36,805 nt of DNA from Geobacteraceae bacterium (GCA_024281055.1 JAMXLF010000092.1:1-36805); one strand, 5' to 3'. Shown: positions 2-15,211, counted from the first letter of the stretch. The notes: a model not told the origin generated them from the sequence alone. Numbers and translations: made by a program.

Positions 2-427
2 ATCGGCCACTTCCGCGCCGCCGCCGAGATCTGGCGCGGCCAGAAGTTCAACCCGAACGTCCGCACCTGGATCTGCCCGCCGACCCGCATGGATCAGGCC
101 CAGCTCAAGGACGAGGCGCTCTTCTCCGTTTACAGCGCCGTGGGCGCCCGGGTCGAGATCGCCGGCTGCTCGCTCTGCATGGGTAACCAGGCCCGCGTGC
201 CCGACGGGGTGAACATGTTCTCCACCTCCACCCGTAACTTCGACGACCGGATCGGCGACGGCGCCAAGGTCTTCCTCGGTTCCGCCGAGATCGGCGCGGT
301 TATCTCGAACATCGGGAAGATCCCGACGCCGAAGGAGTACCTGGCTATTTACAAGGAGAAGATTGAGCCGAAGAAGGATTCCGTCTATAAATATCTGCAG
401 TTTGATGAGATGGCGGAGTATAAGTAA
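2..427 (+). CDS. acnB: Aconitate hydratase B (AcnB), C-terminal fragment. The 5' end is truncated by the window edge.
   Basis: The in-frame translation from position 2 reads IGHFRAAAEIWRGQKFNPNVRTWICPPTRMDQ...GCSLCMGNQARV...STSTRNF...GKIPTPKEY. This matches the conserved C-terminus of the AcnB family (E. coli AcnB ends ...CMGNQARV...TSTRNFPNRLG...GKLPTPEEY). The ORF is open to position 1 and stops at TAA 425-427. Confidence 0.85.
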   Translation: MGHFRAAAEIWRGQKFNPNVRTWICPPTRMDQAQLKDEALFSVYSAVGARVEIAGCSLCMGNQARVPDGVNMFSTSTRNFDDRIGDGAKVFLGSAEIGAVISNIGKIPTPKEYLAIYKEKIEPKKDSVYKYLQFDEMAEYK

Positions 428-476
428 TCGTGGAATGGCTTGAGGCTGAGAGGCTGAAGGCTTGATGTAAAAAGAA

Positions 477-510
477 CCCCCGCTCTGGGCTTGCCCAGGC
501 GGGGGTTTTG
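477..510 (+). terminator. Rho-independent terminator of acnB
   Basis: Imperfect GC hairpin cccccgctctgggc / gcccaggcggggg followed by TTTT (506-509), about 50 nt downstream of the acnB stop. Confidence 0.6.
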
Positions 511-528
511 TCTATAAATCCTTTATTG

Positions 529-557
529 TTGACACATTAGAATGTAATCGATTAATT
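529..557 (+). promoter_or_regulatory. Putative sigma-70 promoter for the AT-rich foreign gene
   Basis: TTGACA at 529-534, a 17-nt spacer, then TTAATT at 552-557. This is about 40 nt upstream of ATG 597. It lies in an AT-rich leader that also has aggGa SD-like purines before the start. Confidence 0.4.
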
Positions 558-596
558 GATGCCAAGTTAAAGGTCGTGGACGTGAAGGGAGCGGGT

Positions 597-2897
597 ATGA
601 GAGCAGCTGTAACTGAGTATAAAAGAGCATGGGACGCATATTGTGTACGGCCGAATAGGATTGATTTGCTGAAGAAGGTAGAGAAACTACTTGAACTAAG
701 CCTGCAGCAAAATGACCGAGTTTGTGAACTCTTTTTCCAGGCAAAAGTTAATGACATCAGAAAGAATGTTCATACCTGTCTCGAATACTATGAGCGACTA
801 ACTGCAGAATACAATGCCACGAATGAATATGATGAGCTGGTACTTCTTGGCTGGTCACACGTCAATGCTGCATCCTTATATGAGGATGAAGAAGATGCTG
901 AAATGATGATGAATCATGCTGATGCCGCAATTTCCATTGGCAGGAAACAAAACGATCCTTTATTTTGGGAAATAGAAGGCAGTGGTTATGTAAACAAAGG
1001 GAAGGCGTGGTATTATTTAGATGACTTTGATAAAGAAATAGAAGCTTACGATACTGTTATAAAGAAGTTTACCAATAAGGATAATGAAAAGATCAAACAT
1101 CTAGTATGTACTGCGATTTACTACAAAGGCCTTACTTTAAGAGAGCAATCAAAAAACAATCTTGCAATTATCGAATATGATAAAGTTTTAGAAATAGCTG
1201 TAGGCTGCAAGTATACACCAATACATATTACGTCAATTAACTGTTGGAATGAAAAAAGTGACATTTTCTTAAAGCAAGAAAAACCATTAGATGCTGTGCT
1301 TGAACTAAATCAAGTGATAGAAATATATCGTGGAAAGAAAAACGTGCAAATCAGAAAGGCTGTTGCACAAGCTCTACTAAAAAAGAGTGATATTTTAAAA
1401 AAATTAGGTAAGAGTGAAGAAAGTATAGAAATTATTAAGTCCATCAGTGTTTCAGAAAGAGACAACGAAGAGATTCAGCAACGCATTGCCTTTATCAATT
1501 CTGTTTCTGAGAATCCGGAACTAGATGTACCTCAAAGTATTGACGAAATCATTAGGGCGTTTTCACAAAAGGATAAAGACAGCTTTTTCTCAGAAATGAA
1601 GGAACGTGAGAAAAGAACACAAGCATTTTTGGGTAAAGAAAGTAACTTTAACAGAGATGACAAAGCTTGCCTTTTCTTTGACCTTAGGGAATGGAATTCA
1701 TACACACCGGCCGTTCCAGACCAGCATGAAATTGATCGTGGCGGGGGATATTTTATTAGATATAATAATCAAGGGTTGGTAATCGATCCCGGATTTGATT
1801 TTATAAAAAACTTTGGGGCAGTTGATGGAAGATTATGTGATATCGACCACATATTCATAACTCATGCACACAATGACCATACTCAAGATTTTGAATCAAT
1901 ACTTAGTTTGCTATTTCAATACAATAAACGTAACAAGACGAAAAAGGTCAACCTTTATCTAAGTCAAGGCGCAGCAAGAAAATTCTCAGGTTATTTGCCT
2001 CTTCGAGATGCTTCTTACATTGGTAGAGTGGAGGTCTTAAACCAAGGAAACAAGGAGAATCCGCAGGTAATTCATCTGGCCGGGCTTGAAGGCGCTTCTG
2101 TAACGGTTTTAAAAGCTTATCACGATGATTCAATCACTCTCGACTATTCAGTTGGTCTTGGATTTGAGCTTGAATTCCCTGACGGTATGAGACGAGTTGT
2201 TTTTACGGGTGACACTGGACTGTTTCCCTTAAAAATGAATGAGGAGGGTAAAGTCATAAGAAAAGAGAGTGGAGATCCTGCTTTAGATATTGACTCGCAA
2301 GCTACCAGAGCTATATTCAACCAATATCCAATTACTTTTCGTGAGCCTGATTTGCTTATACCTCACATCGGGTCAATCAAAGAAGATGAATTCAAATCCG
2401 ATCATCGGTCAAAACCTGGGGGAGGTACCTTCGAGGAAAGTGTATACTTCTATCCGAATCATCTTGGACTCAGAGGACTTGTTTTGCTTTTAGCTAGGAT
2501 GAAACCAAAAGTGGTTGTAGTTAGTGAATTTGGTGAAGAATTAAAAAATATTAGATTTGATCTTGTAAGGGGTATAGAAAAATTACTTCGTAGTATGACC
2601 ACTCCAATTGAGAATAGTATATGTTTAGTTCCTGGGGATGTAACAGTGGTTTTCGATATCAAAAAAATGGAATTTCTTTGCCACGATAAAAAGACTTTTA
2701 TTGGATATAATGAAATTGGATACTTGGAAGTGCCAGAACCGATAGATAGTAGATTTTACTGCAATGAGGTAAGCCGTACATATATTTTTAGGAAACCCCT
2801 TCCAACAAAGAAACAAGCACTAAATTTTGTAAAGCATTATCATATAGATGTTGAAGATTACGGTTATCCCTACAATGAGAAAGCCCCGACTCAATAA
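597..2897 (+). CDS. Large two-domain protein. It has an N-terminal alpha-helical TPR-like region and a C-terminal metallo-beta-lactamase (MBL) fold hydrolase or nuclease domain. It appears horizontally acquired.
   Basis: A 767-aa ORF from ATG 597 (listed from in-frame GTG 576, but 597 has an agggagcgggt spacer). The C-terminal half carries MBL motifs: VIDPGFD, DHIFITHAHNDH (HxHxDH), VVFTGDTG and LLIPHIGS. The N-terminal half of roughly 370 aa is helical-repeat, TPR-like sequence. The gene is conspicuously AT-rich, as in atgagagcagctgtaactgagtataaaag..., against GC-rich flanks. It lies between the acnB terminator and a REP-like repeat. Confidence 0.8.
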   Translation: MRAAVTEYKRAWDAYCVRPNRIDLLKKVEKLLELSLQQNDRVCELFFQAKVNDIRKNVHTCLEYYERLTAEYNATNEYDELVLLGWSHVNAASLYEDEEDAEMMMNHADAAISIGRKQNDPLFWEIEGSGYVNKGKAWYYLDDFDKEIEAYDTVIKKFTNKDNEKIKHLVCTAIYYKGLTLREQSKNNLAIIEYDKVLEIAVGCKYTPIHITSINCWNEKSDIFLKQEKPLDAVLELNQVIEIYRGKKNVQIRKAVAQALLKKSDILKKLGKSEESIEIIKSISVSERDNEEIQQRIAFINSVSENPELDVPQSIDEIIRAFSQKDKDSFFSEMKEREKRTQAFLGKESNFNRDDKACLFFDLREWNSYTPAVPDQHEIDRGGGYFIRYNNQGLVIDPGFDFIKNFGAVDGRLCDIDHIFITHAHNDHTQDFESILSLLFQYNKRNKTKKVNLYLSQGAARKFSGYLPLRDASYIGRVEVLNQGNKENPQVIHLAGLEGASVTVLKAYHDDSITLDYSVGLGFELEFPDGMRRVVFTGDTGLFPLKMNEEGKVIRKESGDPALDIDSQATRAIFNQYPITFREPDLLIPHIGSIKEDEFKSDHRSKPGGGTFEESVYFYPNHLGLRGLVLLLARMKPKVVVVSEFGEELKNIRFDLVRGIEKLLRSMTTPIENSICLVPGDVTVVFDIKKMEFLCHDKKTFIGYNEIGYLEVPEPIDSRFYCNEVSRTYIFRKPLPTKKQALNFVKHYHIDVEDYGYPYNEKAPTQ

Positions 2898-2980
2898 CAG
2901 TGAGTAGAAAAAAAGGGACTGGCTATTTTATAAATAATCAGCCCGTCCCCTTTGCTTGCCTTCCCCTCTTCTTTACAACC

Positions 2981-3060
2981 TTTCCGGAATTCCGGGGACA
3001 CCATACTTAATTCAAAAGGCGGCCAATCGGCCGCCTTTGACGTCGTCACAACGGAAATAT
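2981..3060. repeat. REP-like hairpin repeat, copy A. Its core is ggacaccatacNtaattcaaaaggcggccaatYggccgcctttg.
   Basis: It contains the perfect hairpin aaaggcggcc-aatc-ggccgccttt. An approximately 80-bp near-identical copy lies at 7780-7860, and a shorter related copy at 23383-23412. Confidence 0.7.
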
Positions 3061-3161
3061 GCCTGCCCCCAGCTTTTTTCTTGACCCTGCTCCAGATCAC
3101 GGTAAAATGAGCGCAGTCCCTTGAAATTGCAAGAGATTATCACTGTTGTAGAGGAGACCCG

Positions 3162-3401
3162 GTGAGTCCCACCGTATTCAGGGCAGACGGCTTCCGGTTC
3201 TATTTCTTTTCCCGCGAAGAACCGCGACTCCATATCCATATCCATGGTGAAAGCGGCGAGGCAAAGTTCTGGATCGAGCCCCGGATCGAGATGGCTCAAA
3301 ACTACGGCTTGTCGGAAAAGGACCTGGGAAGGATCGGGAAACTGATCGAGGAGCATGAGGATGACATTCGCTGTGCGTGGCGCCGACACTTCGGCGGCTG
3401 A
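3162..3401 (+). CDS. DUF4160 family small protein
   Basis: GTG start. The N-terminus MSPTVFRADGFRFYFFSREEPRLHIHIHGE...FWIEP matches the DUF4160 family pattern. It overlaps the next gene, as is typical of DUF4160/DUF2442 pairs. Confidence 0.7.
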   Translation: MSPTVFRADGFRFYFFSREEPRLHIHIHGESGEAKFWIEPRIEMAQNYGLSEKDLGRIGKLIEEHEDDIRCAWRRHFGG

Positions 3402-3891
3402 GGTCACGAACATCTCGCAGCACGGGTTCTGGCTGTTGATCGGCGACCAGGAGGCTTTTCTCCCCTTCGAGAACTTTCCCTGGTTCAGGGAAGCACCGGT
3501 GGGGAGCATCCTTCACGTGGAGCTTCAGTCGCCGGACCATCTCTACTGGCCTGAACTGGATGTGGATCTTGAGACGGAGTGCATCCTTAATCCGGATGCA
3601 TATCCGTTGGTAAGCCAAGTACATGAGAACCAGGAGCGGTATGGGCCACAGGAAAATGAGGAGAGCATAAACCGGGAAAGGATAGACGATTGCGTTCTTG
3701 CACTGCTGCAATTGACGCTGCACCTCGGTTCACGTGCTTGGAAAGGGTTTGACTTCGAAGTCTTGGATCGACTCCATGCAAAAGGCTACCTGCTCGATAC
3801 TCGGAACAAGACCAAGTCTGTTGTGCTTACGGAAGAGGGCCTTGCCCGGTCAAAGGCGCTTTTTCGGGAATTGTTTGCCAAAGTGAAATAA
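3355..3891 (+). CDS. DUF2442 domain protein with a C-terminal helical extension that is DUF6429-like
   Basis: The N-terminal region VTNISQHGFWLLIGDQEAFLPFENFPWFREAPVGSILHVEL...LYWPELDVDLE is the DUF2442 signature. The C-terminal part, IDDCVLALLQLTLHLGSRAWKGFDFEVLDRLHAKGYLLDTRNKTKSVVLTEEGLARS, resembles small DUF6429-type proteins. The exact start is uncertain: ATG 3355, ATG 3361 and GTG 3376 are all in frame. It overlaps the end of the DUF4160 gene. Confidence 0.65.
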   Translation: MRMTFAVRGADTSAAEVTNISQHGFWLLIGDQEAFLPFENFPWFREAPVGSILHVELQSPDHLYWPELDVDLETECILNPDAYPLVSQVHENQERYGPQENEESINRERIDDCVLALLQLTLHLGSRAWKGFDFEVLDRLHAKGYLLDTRNKTKSVVLTEEGLARSKALFRELFAKVK

Positions 3892-3959
3892 GTGCCCTTT
3901 CTGCCAGCTCATCAGTATCATCTCGGTCCGGCGCGCCCGCAAAGAGGAGATAGCACTGT

Positions 3960-4184
3960 ATGAAAGCTAAGGATATTGACAAGACCTTCGACGAGGGTGG
4001 CGACATCTCCGCCTATCTCGATGTGACCAGGGCGAGAAGGCCCGAACAGGAGCAAAAACGGGTCAATGTGGATTTCCCGTTATGGATGATTCAGCAGCTC
4101 GACAAGGAATCACGGCGCCTGGGTGTGCCGCGACAGGCCATCATCAAGGTATGGGTGGCAGAACGTCTGGAGAAAGCTGGGTGA
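3960..4184 (+). CDS. BrnA-like (CopG/RHH-type) antitoxin, an orphan with no adjacent BrnT
   Basis: A 74-aa protein. ...DISAYLD...RVNVDFPLWMIQQLDKESRRLGVPRQAIIKVWVAERLE matches the BrnA antitoxin family pattern. No BrnT (DUF497) ORF is found nearby. Confidence 0.65.
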   Translation: MKAKDIDKTFDEGGDISAYLDVTRARRPEQEQKRVNVDFPLWMIQQLDKESRRLGVPRQAIIKVWVAERLEKAG

Positions 4185-4214
4185 TGATGCCCGAACCGCC
4201 GCTCCTCTCCAACT

Positions 4215-4241
4215 AAAAAGCCCGCTCTCCGCGGGCTTCAT
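4215..4241. terminator. Bidirectional intrinsic terminator between convergent genes
   Basis: The hairpin aaaaagcccgc-tctcc-gcgggcttca sits between the BrnA-like gene (+) and the response regulator (-). It belongs to the Geobacter-type terminator family. Confidence 0.6.
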
Positions 4242-4266
4242 ATGTTACGCTATACTGCAAGAAAGA

Positions 4267-4659
4267 TTACGAATCCAGGTGCGGAGCGGGTAGGTTATCC
4301 CCTGCCAATGCCTTTCCCACAACGCGCAGCAACTCTTTGAGCTTGAAAGGCTTGGTTATATAGCCGCTTTGTTGTAAGCCCTGCATCTTGGCGAAATGGT
4401 CGGGAAAGTCACTGACAAATACGATCGGAATGCTTGCCACTCTCTGGATATCTTCTGCTGCCATGATCCCATTGATCCTCCCGTCGAGAATCACTTCCAT
4501 GAGCACGAGATCGGGGTGTGTTGCCCGGACTACGTCGGCCACTCCCTCGCCCGTTGCGATGGCGCCGCATACGCAGTAGCCATGTGTGGTAAGTACTGTC
4601 TGGAGTAAGGCTGTTATCGAGCTTTCATCCTCGACGATGAGAATTCGCGGTTTTTCCAT
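4267..4659 (-). CDS. Single-domain response regulator (CheY-like receiver)
   Basis: MEKPRILIVEDESSITALLQTVLTTHGYCV...DLVLMEVILDGRINGIMAAEDIQ...ITKPFKLKELL has canonical receiver motifs (DE pair, phospho-Asp context, K). I chose the ATG at 4659 (MEKPRIL) over the listed upstream ATG 4737 because of the domain boundary. Confidence 0.8.
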   Translation of the reverse strand: MEKPRILIVEDESSITALLQTVLTTHGYCVCGAIATGEGVADVVRATHPDLVLMEVILDGRINGIMAAEDIQRVASIPIVFVSDFPDHFAKMQGLQQSGYITKPFKLKELLRVVGKALAGDNLPAPHLDS

Positions 4660-4888
4660 GGTCGGCCCCGGCACGGGTTTTTTCCCACCAGCATACCGCA
4701 AAAATAGGCCAATGAGCATTACTCCGGGATTGCACAACGATTACTATTCTGACATGAAAAGGGAGATGATGGGGTCCCGGTTGCCATCTGCCGGCGAGCG
4801 ATCGATGCTGCGCCACGCATCCGTTGCCATACCGGGCGATCGTAGTAAAATAGGAACAGAGAGATGAGTTACACAAGGAGGTGTCGAC

Positions 4889-5413
4889 ATGGCAACTTCA
4901 CGCGGTATTCAGTTGGCGCAGGGAATTCGCCAGAAAGTAGCTGACCTGAAGCAGGCATGCCGGGACGTGGACGAGAGTCTGGCCGCACGCGCACCCAATG
5001 GCCGGTGGTCCCCCAAGGAGATTCTTTCCCACCTGTGTGGTCCCGAGGGCGTGGGGCACCTGCCGCTCCTCAAGGCCTTTGTTGACCGCGATATCCCGCA
5101 GCTCGCTCTCGATGCCGGGAATCCGTTCTTTACCCCGCAGCGGGCGGCCATGAGCTTCAGCGAGCTGATGGCGGAGTGCGAAGCGAACTACCAGCGGGTG
5201 GCCGGCTTCGCCGAGGAGCTGACCGAGGAGCAACTGGCACGAACAGCGCATGTTCCGGAGTTGAAAGAGTCACCGCTCGGCGAGTACCCCACGCTCGACG
5301 GGATGATCCATGGGCTGGGCGAGTTCCACATCCAGTTTCACATCGACCACATGCGCGAGATCCTGGCAGCGCTTGCGCAGAGCGAGCAGAAGGGCAGGGG
5401 GGGCAGGTCTTGA
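4889..5413 (+). CDS. DinB/YfiT-like (DinB_2, DUF664) four-helix-bundle metalloenzyme-superfamily protein
   Basis: Strong SD aaggagg 7 nt before ATG 4889. ...NGRWSPKEILSHL...GMIHGLGEFHIQFHIDHMREI is typical of the DinB_2 family. Confidence 0.75.
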   Translation: MATSRGIQLAQGIRQKVADLKQACRDVDESLAARAPNGRWSPKEILSHLCGPEGVGHLPLLKAFVDRDIPQLALDAGNPFFTPQRAAMSFSELMAECEANYQRVAGFAEELTEEQLARTAHVPELKESPLGEYPTLDGMIHGLGEFHIQFHIDHMREILAALAQSEQKGRGGRS

Positions 5414-5451
5414 AATATAAGTTTTTGTCCTTTCGCCGCTCTTCACCAACG

Positions 5452-5488
5452 AAAAAAGCCCGCCAAAAGCGGGCTTTCCTGCCTGTCC
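5452..5488 (+). terminator. Intrinsic terminator or REP of the Geobacter-type family
   Basis: aaaaaagcccgccaaaagcgggctttcctgcctgtcc, a hairpin plus a conserved tail, lies downstream of the DinB-like gene. Confidence 0.6.
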
Positions 5489-5531
5489 AAACCAGTTTAA
5501 CGCAGAGAACTTGCTAAATGGTTATGGTAAA

Positions 5532-5873
5532 CTATGCGCAGGTTACCCGCATACGTCCGATCCCACTCTTTTTTCGGTCCTTGATGACGATATCAACATC
5601 ACGGCCGAGAAGGTTAAGGAGGTGGCAGAGCTTTTCAAGCGAGAATCCCCGGAGCTTACCATGCTGAATCATGGAAACCTTCGGCTGCGGGATCCCAAGG
5701 ATCGCCGCAGCCTGTGTCTGCGAGAGATGACGTTTTTCAATTATGTTGTTGATTTTCATTGCCAGATTACTTTTTACCAGTAATTCTTCGGAATCCGGTA
5801 ATCCCAAGTCTTCGAACACATTGCCTGAAGAGGGCGTTACACTAATTTCTTCCTGTAATCCTGTCTTTTTCAT
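5532..5873 (-). CDS. higA: HigA-type HTH (XRE family) antitoxin
   Basis: ...GNVFEDLGLPDSEELLVKSNLAMKINNIIEKRHLSQTQAAAILGIPQPKVSMIQHGKLRGFSLEKLCHLLNLLGRDVDIVI is the classic HigA-like antidote pattern. It lies immediately downstream of the HigB-like toxin on the same strand. Confidence 0.8.
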   Translation of the reverse strand: MKKTGLQEEISVTPSSGNVFEDLGLPDSEELLVKSNLAMKINNIIEKRHLSQTQAAAILGIPQPKVSMIQHGKLRGFSLEKLCHLLNLLGRDVDIVIKDRKKSGIGRMRVTCA

Positions 5874-5925
5874 ATCTAAAATCCTTTTAGATGCCCCACT
5901 TGGGCCAGTAACTTTAATGGACCTT

Positions 5926-6274
5926 CTAGTTGCCTGCCAATTCTTTCGCTTTCTTGAGCCGTGCCTTGAGGACCTCGATCTCGTATTTCGGGGTTTCTAT
6001 TCCCTTCTTCGACTTTTTCTGGAAAGCGTGCAGGACGTAAACTTTATCGCCGATCTTGACGGTATACATAACCCGGTATGTGTTACCGTCGTGGTCATCG
6101 CAAATTTCAATGACCGTAGCCCCGCCGCCGATGCCTTTAAGCGGTTTGGTCTGTTGTGATTTCCCTCCTTCTTGCGCGACCCGGAGAGCATACCCCATGC
6201 TGATCCGCGTCTCTTCCGGTAAGCCTCGCAGGACTTCCAGGGAGTCACCTAAAAAAAACTACATCCTTTGCCAT
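5926..6274 (-). pseudogene. higB: HigB-like (RelE/ParE superfamily, phage-derived COG4679-type) toxin, interrupted by a frameshift in an A8/T8 homopolymer
   Basis: The listed ORF 5926..6198 (MGYALRVAQEGGKSQQTKPLKGIGGGATVIEI...VYVLHAFQKKSKKGIETPK) lacks the family N-terminus. An ATG at 6274 with a strong SD (ggaggtgaa-ATG) encodes MAKDVVFF and then stops. Removing one base from the 8-A run (plus strand 6251-6258) restores a full-length 117-aa toxin: MAKDVVFLGDSLEVLRGLPEETRISMGYALRVAQ.... Confidence 0.7.
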
Positions 6275-6470
6275 TTCACCTCCGGATTCGTCATCTCTCG
6301 CAGGTGTGTTAATCATTATACCAAAAGAGGTATGGGGTCAAGCGTAAAAAAACGTTATTGCTCCGGCAACTAAACAGAGTTGAATTCCAAGGCATGGGGT
6401 CAGGCTTTGCATTTGGTGATATAAATACGGTGTCCCGAAAGCACCCGCGACATACAAGAGGCAACTACCT

Positions 6471-6749
6471 TCAGAAGCCGCTCTTCCGTGCTGCAAACCG
6501 CTCGCGGCGCCAGATGATTTCGCCGTTTCGATAGACCTCGCACACACGGTGCAGAGGGATTGAGAGCGGTTCGCCTGCTGCATCGGTCAGTTGTAAGGAA
6601 TAGTGGTCGTTCGGATCAAAGCGCACCTGGACAAGAGGAACCAGAATAATTCGTCCTTCGACGCGATCGTAGTAGCCGACGGTGAACTCTCCCCGGCCGT
6701 ATTCCGGGTCCCAGCGGATGTGATTGAGCAGTTCGCGGATTGTTATCAT
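6471..6749 (-). CDS. DUF504/MJ1316-like domain protein (UPF0248 type)
   Basis: MITIRELLNHIRWDPEYGRGEFTVGYYDRVEGRIILVPL...LHRVCEVYRNGEIIWRRE matches the conserved pattern of the DUF504 / MJ1316 RNA 2',3'-cyclic-end recognition domain family. Confidence 0.6.
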   Translation of the reverse strand: MITIRELLNHIRWDPEYGRGEFTVGYYDRVEGRIILVPLVQVRFDPNDHYSLQLTDAAGEPLSIPLHRVCEVYRNGEIIWRRERFAARKSGF

Positions 6750-6840
6750 CGGAGTACTAAAGTCCTGTTTCCTTCAATTCGACAATTATTACGTCGGTAT
6801 CCGTATCTCCAATGTTTTCGCCGATGTGTCCGGCACCTTC

Positions 6841-7542
6841 TCAAGAGGCCCCGCCGGACGATACCGCTTTTTCCACTATCTCCTGCTCGGCTGCTACAAA
6901 GCGGACAAGTGTCGGACCTGCAGTGAATGTGTATGTCGCATTCTCTATTTTCAGTCCGAGGCTCTCCAGTCCAAGGTTCAGTTCCGCTACAATCGGTTGC
7001 AGATACTTTTCCATGTCCTTTTCCCCTTGCGGCGGAAACGGCCCTGTCAGCTGGGGAGAGCTCCTGAACAACTGCCTCTTGACTGCCAATGACAGCTTGT
7101 CCTGATAGAAGACGAAATTGTCATATGCCCGCTGCCACGCAGGCAGTTCCATGATGTAACCGAGGTTGAGTGACAGGCGGCAGGAATATAGCCCCCCCTT
7201 ATTGTCCGGGGAAAATATCTCCAGCTTATAGGGCCGATCGAGCAGGCCGAAGTGCGGCAATTCGACAATGGTCTGCCCTCGCGATACAAAATCGAACCGG
7301 TTACGAACGGTCTTCTCGGGGATAAAGAAGACCACTTTGCCATCGCGCACGACAAGCGAATTTGCGGGGATCTTGAGGCGGATCAGTCCCCTGTAGAGGA
7401 TGAGGACGCACAGGATCATGAAAATCAGTGCTGCCGTCCACTGCTCGTGCGAAAGCGTATAGACGATTCCGACCAGAAGGGGCAACAGCAACATATAGAA
7501 TATCATTCGTCCTAAAATCCGGATCATTCTCTGAGCCCACAT
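6841..7542 (-). CDS. Membrane protein with two TM helices followed by a bacterial PH-like (DUF304-type) domain and a C-terminal extension
   Basis: An N-terminal hydrophobic pair (MIFYMLLLPLLVGIVYTL / AALIFMILCVLILY) is followed by ...LVVRDGKVVFF..., typical of the bPH_2/YdbT-like architecture. It is on the same strand as, and upstream of, the DUF504 gene. Confidence 0.55.
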   Translation of the reverse strand: MWAQRMIRILGRMIFYMLLLPLLVGIVYTLSHEQWTAALIFMILCVLILYRGLIRLKIPANSLVVRDGKVVFFIPEKTVRNRFDFVSRGQTIVELPHFGLLDRPYKLEIFSPDNKGGLYSCRLSLNLGYIMELPAWQRAYDNFVFYQDKLSLAVKRQLFRSSPQLTGPFPPQGEKDMEKYLQPIVAELNLGLESLGLKIENATYTFTAGPTLVRFVAAEQEIVEKAVSSGGAS

Positions 7543-7779
7543 CGGTTACACCCCCTATTCAAGAAAACCCAACATAACGGGCAAAGCCTTGGCCAATGAT
7601 GGCATTTATTAAAGTTTACACCAATTCCGGAAAGTGAACATTGCAGCGATTTCGACTCGGTCTATTGCCGCAGCTCAATTTGTTCGACATGGCCTACAAC
7701 CATCTGATCGCCCGTCCTCGCGGTCTGAAGCCACTTGACAGCGCGCCCGCGCCCCGGCTCACTCCCCTGGAGTCACACC

Positions 7780-7860
7780 TGAATTCCCTGATTTCCTGGG
7801 ACACCATACGTAATTCAAAAGGCGGCCAATTGGCCGCCTTTGTCGTTTCCCGTGGAAATC
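7780..7860. repeat. REP-like hairpin repeat, copy B
   Basis: cctgaattccctgatttcctgggacaccatacgtaattcaaaaggcggccaattggccgcctttgtcgtttcccgtggaaat. The core of about 46 bp differs from copy A (2995-3040) at 2 positions. Confidence 0.7.
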
Positions 7861-8196
7861 CTTCGCTTCTGGTCCAGGAGCGGCCGCATCTGTCCCTTAC
7901 GGAGTTGGGAAAGACTCTGAATCGGGATATTTCACCGCTGGGCAGGGCAGGGCGGCGATTGCGGATGGAGTCGGCGCAAGGCGTTCGGCTCAGGAAGGTG
8001 ATCGAAAAGGTCAGGGGGAGAGCTGCAGGAATAGCAGAAAGGTAAGCCTGACCGCAGGCGGCGATGGAGATTGAAGTTTTGGGCCAGCGGACGTACAATG
8101 AAAATATCAGGAGGGAAGCGGGTTGAAGATTCCCCGTTTCCCGGTTGGTCTCAATAAATGAACGAAACGTGGAGCATTCGAGGGGAGGTGTACGTT

Positions 8197-8502
8197 ATGC
8201 GCATGCTCATGAACATCACGTTTCCCCACGGGGAATTCAACGCAGCGGTCAAGAACGGTACCGCCGGCAGGAAGATCAGGATGATTCTGGAAGATGCCAG
8301 GCCGGAAGCTGTTTATTTTACCGAGCAGCACGGCCAGCGCAATGCCGTCGTGATCATCAACGTTGACGACGTGTCGAAAATCCCCGCATTTGCCGAACCG
8401 TGGTTTCTGAATTTCAACGCAAATGTCGAGTTCAGGATCGCAATGACCCCTGCGGATCTGGAAAAAGCGGGGCTGGAGGAACTCGGGAAGAGATGGTCCT
8501 AA
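8197..8502 (+). CDS. DUF3303 family protein
   Basis: An SD (gaggggaggtg) precedes ATG 8197. MRMLMNITFPHGEFNAAVKNG...AEPWFLNFNANVEFRIAMTPADLEKAG follows the DUF3303 pattern: an N-terminal MxxMxxWxxxPE..AA motif and a C-terminal W..L.FE..PV..DEE motif. Confidence 0.6.
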   Translation: MRMLMNITFPHGEFNAAVKNGTAGRKIRMILEDARPEAVYFTEQHGQRNAVVIINVDDVSKIPAFAEPWFLNFNANVEFRIAMTPADLEKAGLEELGKRWS

Positions 8503-8564
8503 CGGCGAGCTGCAGGTGGCCATACAGCGGCCTGCCCAATAATCGCAATGTAATGCAAGGCGAG

Positions 8565-8586
8565 GCCCGCGGAAGCGGGCTTTTTG
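8565..8586 (+). terminator. Intrinsic terminator
   Basis: gcccgc-ggaa-gcgggc followed by TTTTT, downstream of the DUF3303 gene. Confidence 0.65.
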
Positions 8587-8631
8587 CGGTGAGCGGGGGC
8601 AATGGGGTCAGGCTTTACAGAGGGAGAAGTG

Positions 8632-9075
8632 ATGCGTTCTAGCTCCAATCTTACCATCGAGTGGGTCAAACCGGACATTGCTGCCGAGCGGTGGGAGTTT
8701 TTTCATCATCCGGAAAAGCAGGGCTTCTACCGGCGCCACACCATCGGCTGGGAAGAGATCCTGTCGGGGTTCGATGCCGGCCGTCTGGCCCCTTATCCCC
8801 GTTCGGACCGGATCGACGGCATCCCGGTCGCTCTCTCCTACAGCAGCTACGACGACTATGCCCGCTACCTGGCCAAGGCCAAGCGGGGCTACCGCAGAAA
8901 CTATTCCCTGATGGAGGAGACGCTGCAGAGCGAGGGAACACTTACCCTCCCTGCGCCAATCGTCCTGGAGTGCGGCGGCGAAGCGCTCCTCTTCTCCGGC
9001 TACCGCCGCCTCTGCCTCGCCTGGAACTACGGCATGATCCCCTTCGTCTGGCTCCTCCCGGTAGCGCCTGCCTGA
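8632..9075 (+). CDS. Hypothetical protein
   Basis: An SD (gggagaag) lies 2-3 nt before ATG 8632. The 147-aa ORF in GC-rich DNA shows no recognisable motif. Confidence 0.55.
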   Translation: MRSSSNLTIEWVKPDIAAERWEFFHHPEKQGFYRRHTIGWEEILSGFDAGRLAPYPRSDRIDGIPVALSYSSYDDYARYLAKAKRGYRRNYSLMEETLQSEGTLTLPAPIVLECGGEALLFSGYRRLCLAWNYGMIPFVWLLPVAPA

Positions 9076-9092
9076 AAAACGAGGGAGGATAA

Positions 9093-9117
9093 AAAAACCC
9101 GCCAAATGCGGGCTTTC
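9093..9117. terminator. Bidirectional intrinsic terminator
   Basis: aaacccgc-caaat-gcgggcttt sits between convergent genes (8632..9075 + and msrA -). Confidence 0.6.
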
Positions 9118-9139
9118 CCGTCAGTTGTCCGCGACTTCC

Positions 9140-9676
9140 CTAGTCGCGGACCCAGTGGCAGGTGTACCCTCCCGGATTTTTCACCAGGTAGTCCTGGTGG
9201 TACTCTTCGGCCCGCCACCACGGGCCCGCATGGGTGATTTCGGTGACCACGGGTCTCTTCCACTTGCCGCTTGCATCCACCTCGGCCTTGATCTTCTCCG
9301 CGATCCGCTTCTGCTCCTCGTCATGGTAAAAGATGGCGCTCCGGTAGCTGGTGCCCACATCGTTCCCCTGGCGGTTCATGGTGGTCGGATCGTGCATCCT
9401 GAAGAAGAACCGAAGCAGGGCCTCGAAGCTGGTCTTGGTCGGATCGAATTCGATCCGCACCGCCTCGGCATGTCCCTCGTGGTTGTGGTAGGTCGCGTTC
9501 GGCACCATCCCGCCGGTATAGCCAACCTCGGTCGAAATCACTCCCGGCTGCTTGCGCAAAAGATCCTGCATCCCCCAGAAACAGCCTCCGGCAAGGGTTG
9601 CCACCTGGCTCGCCGCAGGGGCCTGCGGCGTCAGTCGTTTCTCAAGCCCTTCTTCCGAATAGGTTTTCCCGGTCAT
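9140..9676 (-). CDS. msrA: Peptide methionine sulfoxide reductase MsrA
   Basis: [11 protein letters not shown]... (the catalytic GCFWG motif), [17 protein letters not shown] and YHQDYL are all MsrA hallmarks. Confidence 0.9.
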
Positions 9677-9779
9677 CTCAGTCTCCTTCCCGGCTGTCTG
9701 GTCCGCGCCATTGGAAACCTTATGGAGTCGCCTTTCTGGTATTTTCGGGGAAGATGCTCCTCTGTGGTGAGTGGCGATC

Positions 9780-10070
9780 CTATTCCTTCACCCGCTTCGA
9801 TGCCGCCCGATTAACGGCAAAATTCTCCCGCTTGCCGACGGCCACCACGATGACAACAATGCGGTTGTCGTCAACCTGGTAGACCAGCCTGTAGCCGGCA
9901 TTCTTCAGCTTGATCTTGTAGCAATCCGCCATGCCCGAGAGCCGGGCAGACTCGACGCGGGGCCGCTCCAGCCGCTCGGCGAGCTTTTTCTTGAACTGTT
10001 CCCGGATTCCTCCGTCCAGCTTGTGCCACTCCTTCAGAGCGGATTCCCTGAATTCGAGGCTATAGCTCAT
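9780..10070 (-). CDS. relE: RelE/StbE-type toxin
   Basis: [19 protein letters not shown]...[23 protein letters not shown] is the RelE/ParE family pattern. It overlaps the upstream antitoxin gene by 11 nt. Confidence 0.85.
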
Positions 10071-10305
10071 CGAGGGAAACCTTGACGGTCGGTTCGCGTT
10101 CCCGTTCTTTGACGATGCGCCCCATCTCGTAATCCTCCAGCTTCTCCATCAGCACCTCGAAAGCCTCGGCAGGGATGATATAGGCACTCGGCTTGTTGTG
10201 GTTGAGGATCGCCACGGGTGCGCCTTCGGACTGGTTGATGATCCGGGAAGGGTTCTTCTTCAGGTCGCTGATGCTGACCGATGCCCGGGCATAAAGACGT
10301 TCCAT
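10060..10305 (-). CDS. relB: RelB/StbD (Phd/YefM-like) antitoxin
   Basis: MERLYARASVSISDLKKNPSRIINQSEGAPVAILNHNKPSAYIIPAEAFEVLMEKLED. An SD ggagg lies 7 nt upstream of ATG 10305. The listed longer start at 10329 lacks an SD. Confidence 0.8.
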   Translation of the reverse strand: MERLYARASVSISDLKKNPSRIINQSEGAPVAILNHNKPSAYIIPAEAFEVLMEKLEDYEMGRIVKEREREPTVKVSLDEL

Positions 10306-10455
10306 ATAATGACCTCCAATTAGATACAATTACAGAGACAAATATAGGTCACAATTTCCGGGATTGCAAGCGTTCTGTTCTACCTGACGGGGGTTTTTGC
10401 TTGTCATGTTAGAGGAATTTCAGTAAGCTGATGCCAGCAAGTCACCGAGAGGGCG

Positions 10456-10506
10456 ATGAGTCCAACCGTATTCAGGGAGAGCGCACGTCTCACCTCTCAC
10501 GTCTAA
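10456..10506 (+). pseudogene. Decayed 5' remnant of a DUF4160 gene
   Basis: atgagtccaaccgtattcaggg encodes MSPTVFR, identical to the first seven residues of the DUF4160 gene at 3162, with 19 of 21 nt identical. The frame stops after 16 codons. The upstream DNA also echoes the 3121-3161 promoter region (attgcaag...tagaggag). Confidence 0.4.
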
Positions 10507-10536
10507 CGTCTGACTTTCTTTATATCAGGAGGCATC

Positions 10537-11556
10537 ATGACCATCTTCGACGGCATCAGGCGGCAGCTGCGGACCGTGATCGAATGGCGGGACCCCTCGC
10601 CGGAGGCGCTTTTCACGCAATGGAGCGATAACGGCGACGAGATCAAGAACGCCTCGAAGCTGATCGTCAACCCGGGCCAGGGGTGTATCTTCGTCTACGA
10701 GGGGCAGATCCGCTCGGTGCTGACCGAGCCCTGCATGGTGGAGCTCACGACAGCCAACATCCCTTTCTGGACGACCATCACGCGGTTCATGCAGTCCTTC
10801 CAGAGCGAGCACAAGGTCGGCCTTTACTTCTTCCGCACCGCGAAGGTGCTCAACCAGAAATGGGGGACCCTTTCCCCGATCAAGTACGAGGACCCGAAAT
10901 ACGGCATTCCGGTGGCGGTGAAGGCCTTCGGCAACTTCAGCTGCCGCATCTCCGAGCCGCGCGATTTCTTCGTGAGCGTCGTGGGGGCGCACACCGACTA
11001 CACCATCGCCGACTTCCGGACCGTCATGGCGGAGCGGCTGATCCAGTCCATCACCGACTACATCGCCGAGTGCCGCCTCGCCTACACCGAGATCGATGCC
11101 CATCGGGAGGAGATCGCCGCCGGTCTGGCTCCGAGGTTGACCGCTGATTTCGGCAAGCTCGGCTTTGTCGTGGACGACTTCCGGATCGAGGGGATCAACT
11201 TCGACGAGGACACCGTCCGGCGCATCGGCCGCATCGCCGACATGACCGCCGAGGCGCAGGCGGCGAAGGCGGTGGGGTTGGACTACGGCTCCGTCCAGAG
11301 ACTGGAGGCGCTGCGGGAAGCCGCCCGGAACGAAGGGGGCGGGGCCGGCATCGGCATGGGGCTCGGGGCCGGTGTGGGCCTCGGGCAGACCATCGCCCAG
11401 GCCATGGGGCAGCCGGCCGCCGGTGCGCCGCAGCCTGCCGGGGCCGGTGGCGATGCCGCGGCACGGCTTGCCCAGCTCAAGCAGATGTTCGACCAGGAGC
11501 TGATCACGGCGGAGGAGTTTGCCGCCAAGAAGAAACAGATACTGGATACGGTTTAG
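10537..11556 (+). CDS. SPFH/band-7 family protein with a C-terminal SHOCT domain (COG4260-like)
   Basis: An SD aggagg precedes ATG 10537. A Gly/Ala-rich linker and a C-terminal AARLAQLKQMFDQELITAEEFAAKKKQIL (SHOCT motif) are present. The N-terminal 230 aa match the SPFH-type protein pattern. Confidence 0.75.
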   Translation: MTIFDGIRRQLRTVIEWRDPSPEALFTQWSDNGDEIKNASKLIVNPGQGCIFVYEGQIRSVLTEPCMVELTTANIPFWTTITRFMQSFQSEHKVGLYFFRTAKVLNQKWGTLSPIKYEDPKYGIPVAVKAFGNFSCRISEPRDFFVSVVGAHTDYTIADFRTVMAERLIQSITDYIAECRLAYTEIDAHREEIAAGLAPRLTADFGKLGFVVDDFRIEGINFDEDTVRRIGRIADMTAEAQAAKAVGLDYGSVQRLEALREAARNEGGGAGIGMGLGAGVGLGQTIAQAMGQPAAGAPQPAGAGGDAAARLAQLKQMFDQELITAEEFAAKKKQILDTV

Positions 11557-11591
11557 ATATTCAGCACGTGTCGGATCATAACTCCCCTCGC

Positions 11592-11647
11592 CCCCTCTTA
11601 GCTTAAGAGGGGGGATAAAAACCTCCTCCCCTTGAGTTAAGGGGAGG
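11592..11647 (+). repeat. Tandem GC-rich hairpins in the SPFH/zinc-ribbon intergenic region
   Basis: Hairpin 1 is cctctta-gc-ttaagagg (about 11592-11613). Hairpin 2 is cctcccctt-gagtt-aaggggagg (11625-11647). Neither is followed by a T-run. Confidence 0.5.
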
Positions 11648-11730
11648 TCGGGAGGGGTTATGCAAGAGCGATAAAGCCTGCAAAGGAATCGTTGCAAACG
11701 ACTCTTAGACCCATTTTCGAGGGCATGATC

Positions 11731-12387
11731 ATGGCCTTATGCAGCAGCTGTTCAGCGCCGCTTCCCGTCAACGACTGCCGGTGCAGCTATTGCGGTACCC
11801 GCAACGACATGGATTTTGCCGCCGTGGATCGCTACACCGTCGCCCGAGAACCGTCCCGGCGCCAGTGCCCGGATTGCGCGATCCCCCTCCAGACGGTCCG
11901 GGTCGATACCGGCGCCGGAGTTTTCGCCATCGAGCGCTGCGAGCACTGTTACGGTCTCTTTTTCGACGTGGGGGAGGTCCAGGCATTCCTCGATGCCTCC
12001 GTTACCCCAGCCTTCGCCGTCAACCTCCGCGAGATAGCCCTCATCAACGAGGAACGGGGCGCCGTCCGTCCGGTTCGCTACATCAAGTGTCCCGAATGCG
12101 GCGTGTTGATGAATCGCATGAATTACGGCGCCAGGAGCGGCGTCGTGGTGGACCAGTGCAAGGATCACGGCATGTGGCTGGACAATGGTGAGCTGGTTCA
12201 CCTGATGGAGTGGAAGAAGGCGGGGGGGCAGCTCCAGGCGCAGAAAGAGCAGGCCGAGGAGCGGGAAAGACGGGAGTATGTCAGGCCCGTCCCCGACTAT
12301 CCGATGTCGGGATGTCTGGAGACGAGCGCTGCGGGGGACCTGCTGGGTGCGGCCTGTACGGTGCTTTTGGAGACTTTGTTTCGCTGA
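11731..12387 (+). CDS. Zinc-ribbon protein (zf-TFIIB-like, two CxxC...CxxC modules), partner of the SPFH protein
   Basis: MALCSSCSAPLPVNDCRCSYCGT... and ...CPDCAIPLQ...CEHCYGLFFDVGEVQ / ...CPECGVLMNRMNY...CKDHGMWLDNGELVHL. An SD-like gaggg lies 7 nt before ATG 11731. The pairing with SPFH is the familiar NfeD-like arrangement. Confidence 0.7.
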   Translation: MALCSSCSAPLPVNDCRCSYCGTRNDMDFAAVDRYTVAREPSRRQCPDCAIPLQTVRVDTGAGVFAIERCEHCYGLFFDVGEVQAFLDASVTPAFAVNLREIALINEERGAVRPVRYIKCPECGVLMNRMNYGARSGVVVDQCKDHGMWLDNGELVHLMEWKKAGGQLQAQKEQAEERERREYVRPVPDYPMSGCLETSAAGDLLGAACTVLLETLFR

Positions 12388-12452
12388 AGAGGGTGACTAC
12401 GTATAAACGTATAGTTCAAGACCCCAAGGCCCAAGGCCGCCGTGTTATTCTC

Positions 12453-12581
12453 TCACCGGCAGAAAAGGAGCGTATCCGTCGCCAGGAAGAAACCGTATGC
12501 CCCGAGCGCGAGGCAAAGAATATCCCTCACCACAACCACAAGCCCCTCCCACAGCATATTCGTCTCACTGTTTCTTTTCAT
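12453..12581 (-). CDS. Candidate 42-aa hydrophobic small protein
   Basis: A perfect SD gaaggagg 5 nt upstream of ATG. Peptide: MKRNSETNMLWEGLVVVVRDILCLALGAYGFFLATDTLLFCR. It was not in the supplied track because it is under 60 aa. Confidence 0.35.
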   Translation of the reverse strand: MKRNSETNMLWEGLVVVVRDILCLALGAYGFFLATDTLLFCR

Positions 12582-12793
12582 GTTAGCCTCCTTCTCCGAC
12601 GGTTATCCAGGGGCTGCTCGCCCCCCCTGTCGACACTATTGCAATGAGTCGGCCAACTCCCCATGTTTCGTTCGCAATGCCGCAAATGCCCGCATCCCGC
12701 ATCATCCCCTCCCACCGCCGTACCCCGTATGTTTGTACCCTAAACACCAGCTGCCTAATTATTAGGCAGGTCCTGGAAAGGCGAGGGGGTCAG

Positions 12794-12816
12794 AAAGCCC
12801 GCCAGAAGCGGGCTTT
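12794..12816 (+). terminator. Geobacter-type terminator/REP hairpin
   Basis: aaagcccgccagaagcgggcttt. A second, decayed copy lies at 12862-12884 with a conserved tail running to about 12912. Confidence 0.5.
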
Positions 12817-12924
12817 CCTGCCTCCAACATGCTATAATGAAAAAGGGAATTCGTGGGAAAAAACCCGCCAAAACGGGCTTTCCTGCCTGTCTCGCAGGGC
12901 TGCCGCGTGACACGCTCTCCTTCC

Positions 12925-12954
12925 TTGACAACCTCCGTGGATTCAGGATATATA
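12925..12954 (+). promoter_or_regulatory. Putative sigma-70 promoter of the first REC-PilZ gene
   Basis: TTGACA at 12925-12930, a 17-18-nt spacer, then ATATAT or TATATA at 12948-12954. The start codon 12962 follows within about 8 nt of the -10 element, with no SD. This suggests a leaderless or short-leader transcript. Confidence 0.4.
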
Positions 12955-12961
12955 GATTTCT

Positions 12962-13636
12962 ATGAAAAAAATTCTTCTTATCAATCCAGGCAGAGACACT
13001 CTTGCTTTCGTAAATTTTTTTGATCGGGACGGCCTTCGAATCTTCACTGCCACCACAGCGGAAGAAGGGCTCAGGATTCACCGTGAGGAAATGGTCAATC
13101 TGATTCTCATCGAACTCGACCTTCCCGACATGGGGGGGGACTCACTCTGCTCCCGTATCCGTCAGGACCAATCACTCAGGAATGTTTCCATCATTGTCGT
13201 GTGCGGAGACACGCCGGAAGAGATCGAGAGAGCAGAAAGCTGCGGTGCCAATGCGCGGTTGCTGAAACCGGTCAAGCCGGAGGAACTCGACGACTGCGTC
13301 GGGAAACTCCTGGCTGTCCCGTCGCGCCGGGATTGTCGGGTCCTCGTCAGGGCACAGCTCTATGACCAACGCGGCGTGACGACTTTGTTCGGTACCTCGC
13401 AAAACATCAGCGTTTCCGGACTTCTGATCGAGTCGGACGATCACCTCGCAGTGGGAGACCGGATTTCTTGCGTGTTCTACCTCCCGGACGTTCGCAAGAT
13501 AACGGCCGTTGGGGAGGTTGTCCGGACCACCCGCCTTTCTCGCATCACGAAACAGTATGGAATCAGGTTCGTTTATCTCTACCCCGATGTAAAGGCGGAA
13601 ATAGAAAATTACGTCGCCCTCAACGCGGCAGCCTGA
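12962..13636 (+). CDS. Receiver (REC) domain plus PilZ domain protein (c-di-GMP-binding response regulator)
   Basis: The REC-like N-terminus has the conserved Asp context (LILIELDLPDMGG) and a K (LLKPV). The PilZ motifs RRDCR (RxxxR) and NISVSG (D/NxSxxG) are intact. The N-terminal acidic pocket is atypical (LLINPGRDT instead of the usual DD). Confidence 0.8.
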   Translation: MKKILLINPGRDTLAFVNFFDRDGLRIFTATTAEEGLRIHREEMVNLILIELDLPDMGGDSLCSRIRQDQSLRNVSIIVVCGDTPEEIERAESCGANARLLKPVKPEELDDCVGKLLAVPSRRDCRVLVRAQLYDQRGVTTLFGTSQNISVSGLLIESDDHLAVGDRISCVFYLPDVRKITAVGEVVRTTRLSRITKQYGIRFVYLYPDVKAEIENYVALNAAA

Positions 13637-13788
13637 ACCCGGCCTCACTCCGCTCTTCTCCAAGGTTTTTCAAGTCCCGTCTCATTCGCCTTCATCATCC
13701 CCCAAATATCTGGTATAGTAAATCCGCCGCCTTTCTCTTTCGAAAGGCACAGCCTGATCATTTTGCAAACACGCTCAAGAAGGTACTT

Positions 13789-15099: not shown

Positions 15100-15111
15100 A
15101 AAAGTAGCAAA

Positions 15112-15134
15112 AAAGCCCGCCAAAAGCGGGCTTT
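15112..15134 (+). terminator. Geobacter-type terminator with an extended REP tail
   Basis: aaaaaagcccgccaaaagcgggcttt is followed by cctgtctttctcgccgggattgcaccacgccgacc (to about 15175). This tail is similar to those at 12885-12912 and 19376-19410. Confidence 0.6.
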
Positions 15135-15211
15135 CCTGTCTTTCTCGCCGGGATTGCACCACGCCGACCTGAGCGTGCCAATCCGACTCGAATCCTCTTC
15201 GGTTCTCAAAC

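Follow-up and report, generated by a model that had tools for sequence, protein, structure and literature searches.

The closest described counterparts of the intergenic repeat reported here fall into several classes. In Neisseria, dRS3/NIME and Correia repeats surround "minimal mobile elements", in which different genes lie between conserved flanking genes depending on the strain and their exchange is attributed to host homologous recombination; these repeats are abundant and carry terminal inverted repeats. The Xer-dependent pdif modules of Acinetobacter plasmids are toxin-antitoxin and stress modules, which are brought together in varied combinations and orientations at short conserved sites by host recombinases. 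Integron attC sites, such as the VCRs of Vibrio cholerae, are repeats of about 60-120 nt clustered in the same orientation between small genes, including toxin-antitoxin genes, and their arrays differ between relatives. The repetitive extragenic palindromes (REPs) of gamma-proteobacteria, with the BIMEs and REPINs, lie at gene ends, can terminate or stabilise transcripts and can act as hot spots of recombination or insertion; they occur as hundreds of dispersed, often alternating copies with a GTAG head and a linked RAYT (Y1 transposase). Finally, bidirectional intrinsic terminators combine a GC-rich stem of 7-10 bp with a 4-nt loop and a T-run on both strands, 0-30 nt after the flanking stop codons. 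Here we describe a terminator-like hairpin repeat of about 60 bases from a Geobacteraceae bacterium (GCA_024281055.1), of which at least four copies (A to D) are present in the contig JAMXLF010000092.1:1-36805, one entire NCBI contig of 36,805 bp (hereafter the window). Copies of this element are few, clustered and co-oriented, and they lie at the joints of small, independently inherited modules, such as toxin-antitoxin pairs and stress and detoxification genes, within hypervariable chromosomal segments flanked by core genes.

Copies A (2983-3047) and B (7786-7850) score 84 and 85 bits against R1, a 65-position covariance model that we built from 15 copies. Copy A consists of a GGAATTCC-like 8-mer (2986-2993), a core starting with GGGGACACC at 2994, a hairpin at 3015-3038 with the stem AAAGGCGGCC/GGCCGCCTTT and the loop AATC, and a T-rich tail; its predicted RNA fold has an energy of -26.5 kcal/mol (z -3.6). 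The corresponding hairpin of copy B lies at 7818-7841 with the loop AATT, and that of copy C (23352-23416, 69 bits) at 23384-23407 with the loop AAAA. The hairpin AAAGGCGGCC-N4-GGCCGCCTTT is perfect in all three, and as a pattern it has 3 matches in the window against 0.00 expected from shuffles. Copy D (24433-24489) is partial, with an R1 hit at 24433-24479 of 17 bits (E 0.004); its 5' module (24435-24461, GGAAATTCCGGGGATATCATATTTGAT), found by a pattern match with 3 mismatches, is directly followed at 24463-24489 by an unrelated perfect 10-bp stem, CCGGATATCC-N7-GGATATCCGG. A 17-nt motif from the 5' part, TTCCGGGGACACCATAC, likewise matches 3 times against 0.10 expected, one match being at 24440 in copy D. 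All four copies are on the plus strand. A direct-repeat search aligned copies A and B at 89% identity over 63 nt (2981-3043 and 7784-7846), with 23350-23412 at 70%, and blastn-short recovered a core with 47 of 50 positions identical (2990-3039 and 7793-7842, E 8e-17). A first-pass annotation of this contig had described A and B as near-identical direct repeats of about 80 bp: both are indeed where it placed them, and the 46-nt core with two mismatches and the perfect 10-bp-stem hairpin that it reported are present in both copies, but the true similarity spans about 63-65 nt and is weak beyond. What it took for a conserved downstream flank only faintly echoes the 5' module, in inverted and degenerate form, and the third site that it listed as a hairpin at 23383-23412 is related as stated, being in fact part of a full-length member, copy C; copy D had been missed.

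The sites of the copies differ in their gene context. Copy A lies 86 nt past the stop codon of an AT-rich metallo-beta-lactamase-fold gene, with both that gene and its own terminator preceding it, and 114 nt ahead of a DUF4160 gene start. Copy B is situated in a 615-nt divergent gap between a gene for a 233-aa membrane protein on the minus strand and a 114-aa gene on the plus strand. Copy C is found past a minus-strand rubrerythrin gene, whose stop (23436) is 19 nt away when measured from the model edge and 28 nt when measured from the hairpin; the copy is also 57 nt upstream of where the LMF1 gene starts (23294). Among other assemblies of the same organism we recovered two identical Logan contigs, both from SRR19769809, which span about 342-14905 of the window and show no alternative arrangement.

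Beyond the window, the repeat was studied in 41 other loci (labelled L0xx; L010 is from Geobacter sp. AOG1), and R1 detects 62 copies at E <= 1e-8 in the combined 249 kb of window and loci. In alignments of 15-62 copies about 60 nt are conserved with sharp edges, the flanks being unrelated on both sides, and the family unit measures about 52-65 nt. Its consensus is gGGAATTCCgGGGACACCATACtTAATTCAAAAGGCGGCCAATCGGCCGCCTTTGyTGTTTc, in which GGGGACA and everything from AATTC through the hairpin is conserved at 80-99%. The core is discrete and about 52 nt long, GGGGACACCATACtTAATTC-AAAAGGCGGCC-AATC-GGCCGCCTTTG-yTGTTTc; the GGAATTCC-like 8-mer usually stands ahead of it and is 50-80% conserved. Across the 62 copies, which come from several genera, the stem is nearly invariant: 96% of the cells are paired and both sides have changed in only 2 of 604, so that covariation speaks neither for nor against selection on an RNA or DNA structure, and in decayed copies pairs are simply lost. 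Most loops are AATC (24 copies), while five copies have its exact reverse complement GATT, which indicates that the palindrome has been flipped on occasion.

Several observations bear on the shape of the element at its edges. The inverted echo of the 5' module follows the hairpin in copy A (3040-3060) and in copy B (7843-7864), the latter being picked up by a minus-strand R1 hit at 7809-7864 with 32 bits. L013 (1867-1919) carries a symmetric form, ACACCATAGGCGGCC-AATC-GGCCGCCTATGGTGT, with a portion of the 5' module repeated in mirror image on the 3' side, and the element may have descended from a longer palindrome. The 5' edge is locally duplicated in copy B (7781-7797, GAATTCCCT|GATTTCCT) and in L038 at about 225-290 (GGAATTCCAGGGACA|GGAATTCCAGGGACACC).

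The element lacks the defining features of REPs, attC sites, island att sites, miniature inverted-repeat transposable elements (MITEs) and dif sites. With respect to MITEs, there are no terminal inverted repeats or target-site duplications common to the 33 copies that were aligned with their flanks; candidates seen at individual copies (ACAAC...ACAAC and TTTCCG/CGGAAA at copy A, GATTTCC/GGAAATC at copy B) are not found at the others. No dif-like 11-6-11 match at <=7 mismatches exists in the window or the loci. The segment GGGGACACCA resembles an acceptor stem followed by CCA, as would be expected if a tRNA or tmRNA end served as an attachment site; by our own reading the preceding bases break the T-arm pattern, and there is no tRNA in the window. 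A loose resemblance to the 38-bp inverted repeat of the Tn3 family (GGGG start, internal AAAA) is accompanied by neither a partner repeat nor a 5-bp duplication. Inspection by eye of both strands against the sigma-70, sigma-54 and extracytoplasmic-function sigma factor consensus sequences gave no acceptable -35/-10 or -24/-12 match, and the distance to gene starts is not fixed. The 5' module was also considered as a coding segment: on the plus strand copies A, B and D read F-R/L-G-H/Y-H-T/I-stop, and on the minus strand all four copies begin with ATG, with 37-aa open reading frames in A and B; across the family neither this stop nor this start codon is conserved.

When one genome per species was scanned with an exact pattern, 13 stretches came up with one match each, from Geobacter sp. 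AOG1, Geobacter sp. OR-1 and 11 metagenome-assembled genomes (MAGs). By their titles, 12 belong to Geobacter, Geobacteraceae, Geobacterales, Pelobacteraceae or Desulfuromonadaceae and one to an unclassified deltaproteobacterial MAG; as the exact pattern is found in those 13 only, the other Geobacteraceae species representatives are without near-consensus copies. A slightly looser pattern retrieved 29 metagenome stretches. There were no matches to the pattern among viral contigs, and plasmid and phage databases gave only generic hairpin matches. Rfam 15 had no window hits at the gathering score and, at E values up to 10, only chance-level ones around copies A and B. The element was also not matched in the literature that we searched, including the supplements of the Geobacter and Pelobacter genome papers, in which multicopy nucleotide sequences from intergenic regions are listed. 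We class it as a lineage-specific (Geobacteraceae/Desulfuromonadales) intergenic repeat of the terminator type, for which no description was found in this literature.

The position of the element relative to genes is consistent with such a type. In a survey of the gene context of 61 full-length copies, the directions of neighbouring genes are even on the 5' side (28:24) as well as on the 3' side (29:27). Gene ends that face the element lie at a median of 31 nt, often only 0-20 nt away (29 of 57 are within 31 nt), whereas gene starts lie at a median of 142 nt and typically beyond 60 nt (4 of 51 within 31 nt; Mann-Whitney p 0.0013). The 10-bp stem is perfect and GC-rich, with fold energies from -22.9 to -28.8 kcal/mol (z about -3.2 to -3.6), and it is followed by TTTG(c)TGTTT on the plus strand and by TTTTGAATT on the minus strand (5 T in the first 8 nt, provided that the A-T pairs are not counted as stem). 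On account of this GC-rich hairpin with T-runs on both strands (UUUG... and UUUUG...) we infer that it would serve as a bidirectional intrinsic (Rho-independent) terminator for whichever gene ends beside it. Unlike ordinary terminators, whose stem differs from gene to gene, the element has a nearly invariant stem, an asymmetric 5' module of 30 nt and a preferred orientation.

The distribution of copies within genomes is equally distinctive. On contigs of 275 kb, 393 kb, 431 kb and 3.68 Mb, near-consensus copies occupy one stretch each, although the scanned pattern is matched by about 40% of the full-length copies in the loci retrieved; each genome therefore keeps its near-consensus copies in a single neighbourhood and the element is not a genome-wide REP, with the limit that these copy numbers come from exact-pattern scans, which would miss diverged copies elsewhere. 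Loci with one exact match usually hold further diverged copies. Clusters comprise 6 copies in 8 kb in L014 (spaced 0.6-2.6 kb apart), 4 copies each in L041, L028 and L040, and 3 in L035 and L032. Neighbouring copies share their orientation in 31 of 32 pairs and 19 of 20 loci, a statistic that overstates independence because many of the loci are orthologous. The only locus with opposed copies is L012 (1102-1166 on the minus and 6126-6191 on the plus strand), where they flank AraC, M20 peptidase and HipA genes. We also observed units without cargo that abut in tandem, in L007 (292-533, the same as L009 7544-7785), L032 (808-1049) and L004 (5808-5941); in L007 the first unit is truncated precisely where the 5' module meets the hairpin.

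Between the copies lie small gene families in varying orders and combinations, including Phd/RelE, HicAB, Fic, FMN reductase, SRPBCC/AHSA1, PhnB-like, isochorismatase and MerR genes, and the arrays are often located between the core genes lysA and dapL (LL-DAP aminotransferase) or near dus. A clean difference involving the window is a segment of about 18.8 kb (7633-26482), in which copies B, C and D are accompanied by about 25 genes (msrA, ParE/Phd, SPFH, rubrerythrins, catalase-like, YaeQ and others) and which in the related metagenome contig L037 is replaced by a single repeat plus about 170 nt. At the left junction window positions 6832-7628 correspond to L037 543-1336 at 87.6% identity, with the L037 repeat (1337-1401) directly after; at the right junction positions 26593-27198, in a PilZ response-regulator gene, correspond to L037 1681-2286 at 74.8%, a weak match beginning from 26483. 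In a second case L041 has a repeat, a MerR gene and a repeat where L006 has one repeat, a difference of 907 bp. In three independent pairs of loci (L006/L041, L025/L038 and L003/L013) common ancestry starts exactly at the left edge of the core, at (C)(A/G)GGGACACC, and the GGAATTCC-like 8-mer upstream is not co-inherited with the core. Conversely, in L026/L035 common ancestry runs from the upstream FMN-reductase gene through the element and ends at its 3' end. Copies that share a downstream Fic gene have hairpin and tail in common and 5' modules of different subtypes. The element is thus a discrete unit: ancestry changes at its edges and at its internal boundary. L034 and L040 each have a HicAB module between two copies; its orientation relative to the repeats is inverted between the two arrays, and there the repeats are 80-88% conserved against 72% for the module that they flank.

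Side by side with these loci we noted several mobile or defence-related genes: a group II intron reverse transcriptase/maturase in L020 (6185-7588), 1.3 kb from a copy; an IS66 transposase in L034 (2601-4043), which gives rise to a 4.4-kb insertion relative to L025; and, near copies in L025 (2051-7548), a type I restriction-modification methylase, a YhcG nuclease and an AbiEii-like ATPase. These three neighbourhoods are rich in defence and mobile genes. A systematic search for recombinases near the arrays found only the reverse transcriptase and the IS66 transposase, each at a single locus.

We favour the explanation, to which as a whole we give a probability of roughly 0.55, that the element is a lineage-specific repeat with terminator function that marks the joints of modules exchanged by recombination. 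The repeat would provide a portable stretch of homology, a fragile hairpin, or both, where DNA is gained, lost or exchanged. Direct copies that recombine with each other would delete a module together with one repeat and the reverse reaction would integrate the same unit; arrays in one orientation and a single copy at "empty" sites would follow from this. As no recombinase is linked to the arrays, host recombination is the most economical agent. The element would be best likened to a bidirectional terminator combined with recombination-prone intergenic repeats such as REP/BIME and the neisserial repeats, although its sequence is unrelated to the latter and natural transformation is not established for these Geobacteraceae. 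The pdif sites alternate in orientation and are found on plasmids, whereas copies of the element are direct and chromosomal. If this explanation holds, a short terminator-type repeat would reveal the limits of variable, horizontally exchanged modules in the chromosomes of metal-reducing bacteria of environmental importance, R1 would be a simple sequence marker for their hypervariable segments, and the system would offer a tractable case in which to ask whether modular gene exchange is promoted by short hairpin repeats without a dedicated recombinase.

A number of points weigh against this explanation, among them the limits on copy number and orientation given above. The T-tracts are interrupted, a simple terminator consensus scan lists neither copy A nor copy B, and termination is deduced from sequence and position alone; moreover, neither the conserved 30-nt 5' module nor co-orientation is required for a plain terminator, which leaves the anatomy partly unexplained. 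Only the two cases described above contrast a repeat-module-repeat arrangement cleanly with one repeat, and an indel between L026 and L028 contains a copy but has none at its ends. A further switch of ancestry falls at the boundary between 5' module and hairpin, leaving no single crossover point. The cargo-less tandem units are not produced by simple recombination between direct copies. In all, the 5' module, the GGAATTCC-like motif outside the co-inherited core, the cargo-less tandems and the confinement to one neighbourhood are not accounted for, and these features keep alive both a trans-acting site-specific cassette system and a non-autonomous element of the HUH type.

The latter alternative proposes that the core of about 52 nt is moved in trans by an HUH/Y1 transposase of the IS200/IS605 or RAYT type, inserting 3' of a GGAATTCC-like target in one strand orientation. 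It would explain a discrete core with sharp edges and neither terminal inverted repeats nor target duplication, a subterminal hairpin about 21 nt from the left edge, a conserved 8-mer at that edge which is not co-inherited in the three pairs, and a strong co-orientation that is independent of gene direction; the tandem and nested units of L007 and the coexistence of pristine and decayed copies are also in keeping with it. In the hairpin, the lack of terminal repeats and duplications and the co-orientation, the element is comparable with an IS200/IS605-type end or PATE. Yet only one kind of end is seen rather than distinct left and right ends, no filled and empty pair of orthologous sites is present in the 250 kb of loci, and no Y1 transposase (RAYT) is encoded among the about 330 predicted proteins of the window and the 41 loci. 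Furthermore, a very low copy number with one stretch per genome is unusual for such elements, and we regard this origin as unlikely, if worth keeping in mind.

Under the other alternative, gene cassettes of Geobacteraceae would be exchanged at the element by a hitherto unrecognised system that has no linked integrase. Circular modules of core plus cargo would integrate and excise at the element edge by means of a host or distant recombinase or an HUH enzyme, and would thereby build arrays of toxin-antitoxin and stress genes in one orientation between core genes, for example lysA and dapL. The 5' module, the strict co-orientation and the confinement to one stretch could indeed indicate a dedicated mobilising enzyme in place of host recombination; we consider such a system possible, though the odds are well against it. 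A more specific version, with an integron-like site at which core plus downstream cargo is exchanged at the GGAATTCC|GGGG edge by a recombinase encoded elsewhere, strikes us as quite improbable. Clustered, co-oriented repeats do separate small genes, with n+1 copies around n modules and a single copy at the "empty" site, the element is more conserved than its cargo, and the core is inherited with downstream DNA without the upstream 8-mer in three pairs. But ancestry switches also at the right edge and at the boundary between 5' module and hairpin, so that break points take several positions; loops vary among copies of one array; cargo-less tandem units exist; the cargo is oriented at random, as in the inverted HicAB module, and includes housekeeping genes (rsgA, rluA and msrA). 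In contrast to attC, the element has no R''/R' inverse core sites (RYYYAAC...GTTRRRY) and no extrahelical bases, its left and right parts are not complementary and its stem is perfect. No integron integrase is encoded in the 36.8-kb contig, and no recombinase lies in or beside the complete arrays bounded by lysA and dapL, in which integron integrases are likewise absent. The resemblance to integron arrays is superficial.

That the element is an ordinary genome-wide REP, its bracketing and clustering being coincidental, is very doubtful. It is an extragenic palindrome with conserved flanks, and a second, different hairpin family is also repeated in the window. Rather than the hundreds of sites that the first-pass annotation had envisaged for an ordinary REP, however, the scans gave one short near-consensus stretch per genome in 13 species, even on the 3.68-Mb scaffold; moreover the copies have another head than GTAG and are co-oriented, not alternating. 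A small RNA gene or cis-regulatory RNA in several paralogous copies is highly improbable, since despite a conserved 30-nt segment ahead of a terminator hairpin and tandem copies as in some small RNA families, there is no conserved promoter (abutting tandem units leave no room for one), no fixed distance or orientation to any gene, no compensatory change in the stem beyond the 2 of 604 cells, no Rfam match and no conservation of the start and stop codons in the 5' module.

The remaining alternative, that A and B are the attL and attR scars of a single integrated cassette or island of 4.8 kb (2981-7860), has hardly any probability left. In its favour, the block is rich in toxin-antitoxin and stress genes and has a direct repeat on either side, and a foreign AT-rich gene abuts copy A. 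Against it, the whole contig contains no integrase, transposase, excisionase, tRNA or tmRNA; the block leaves two further copies outside; copy A matches the copies in L005, L003, L012 and L008 at 96-100% identity and copy B at only 89-94%; and the segment that varies with respect to L037 is on the other side of copy B. The block reads instead as a mosaic of several modules in a row, because four of its modules recur singly in other genomes beside other neighbours. Of the three options that the first-pass annotation had left open, a repeat family whose hairpin occupies terminator positions and the coincidence of its copies with joints between DNA of different ancestry are supported, and the boundaries of one mobile cassette are not; the block is not absent or replaced as a unit in relatives, the presence/absence difference being the segment 7633-26482 seen against L037.

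Within the block, Pfam identifies DUF4160, DUF2442 with DUF6429, a CopG-type antitoxin, a response regulator, DinB_2, HTH_37 (HigA-like), Gp49 (HigB-like) and MJ1316/DUF504, in agreement with all but one of the earlier gene assignments; a bPH domain was unsupported, as the 233-aa protein concerned has no Pfam match. The first of the recurring modules comprises the BrnA-like antitoxin gene and the 3' remnant of BrnT (3912-4185, plus strand), and is 94% identical to L019 1228-1501. In L019 an intact BrnT precedes it, with a copy of the repeat about 100 nt upstream of BrnT (about 250 nt from the module) and with unrelated flanks. In the window the last approximately 16 codons of BrnT remain (3912-3959), the rest having been replaced by the DUF2442/DUF6429 gene, so that the antitoxin of the window is an orphan. 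The DUF2442/DUF6429 module itself is 68% identical to L042. The DinB_2 module (4861-5376, plus strand) is 81% identical to Geobacter sp. AOG1 (L010 2021-2536), and in that genome it has repeat copies on both sides (1902-1964 and 3156-3220) and other neighbours. Lastly, the module of the 233-aa membrane protein with its upstream region (6832-7632, minus strand) is 88% identical to L037; the homology ends on the right at 7632 and, on the left, at about 6832, the stop codon of the gene.

The AT-rich gene to the left of copy A (576-2897), whose GC content of 0.34-0.40 bears out the first-pass description, lies between the acnB terminator and the repeat and encodes a 773-aa protein with TPR and metallo-beta-lactamase-fold regions. 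Its precomputed Pfam hits include Anti-Pycsar Apyc1 (PF23023), an anti-defence family that degrades cyclic nucleotides. The gene is provided with a promoter-like site and a terminator (2915-2950) of its own, and its nearest homologues are only 45% identical.

The second hairpin family of the window, AAAAAGCCCGCCAAAAGCGGGCTTTCCTGCCTGTCTCGCC..., occurs at 5453-5478, 9092-9117, 12792-12817, 12857-12881, 15110-15135 and 19352-19377, with related hairpins at 4217-4238 and 29979-30004. It has a single orientation throughout, most members lie between convergent genes, and a 3' extension is conserved between 15102-15170 and 19344-19412 (84% over 69 nt). None of the 41 other loci contains it, which makes it specific to this genome. 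Ahead of one of its hairpins, at 12845-12860, stands a GGGAATTCGTGGGA motif that resembles the start of the main element. The direct-repeat list of the window is dominated by a gene at 31303-34968 for a 1221-aa protein with at least 13 degenerate repeats of about 40-50 aa (ELWKSDGT...G) and a Big_13 Ig-like domain. Finally, short segments at 10343-10422, 21140-21171 and 26297-26340 are 75-88% identical over 32-44 nt and lie upstream of three unrelated genes, namely an SPFH gene at 10537, a 192-aa gene at 21253 and the PilZ response regulator at 26329; these segments could be a shared operator or promoter.

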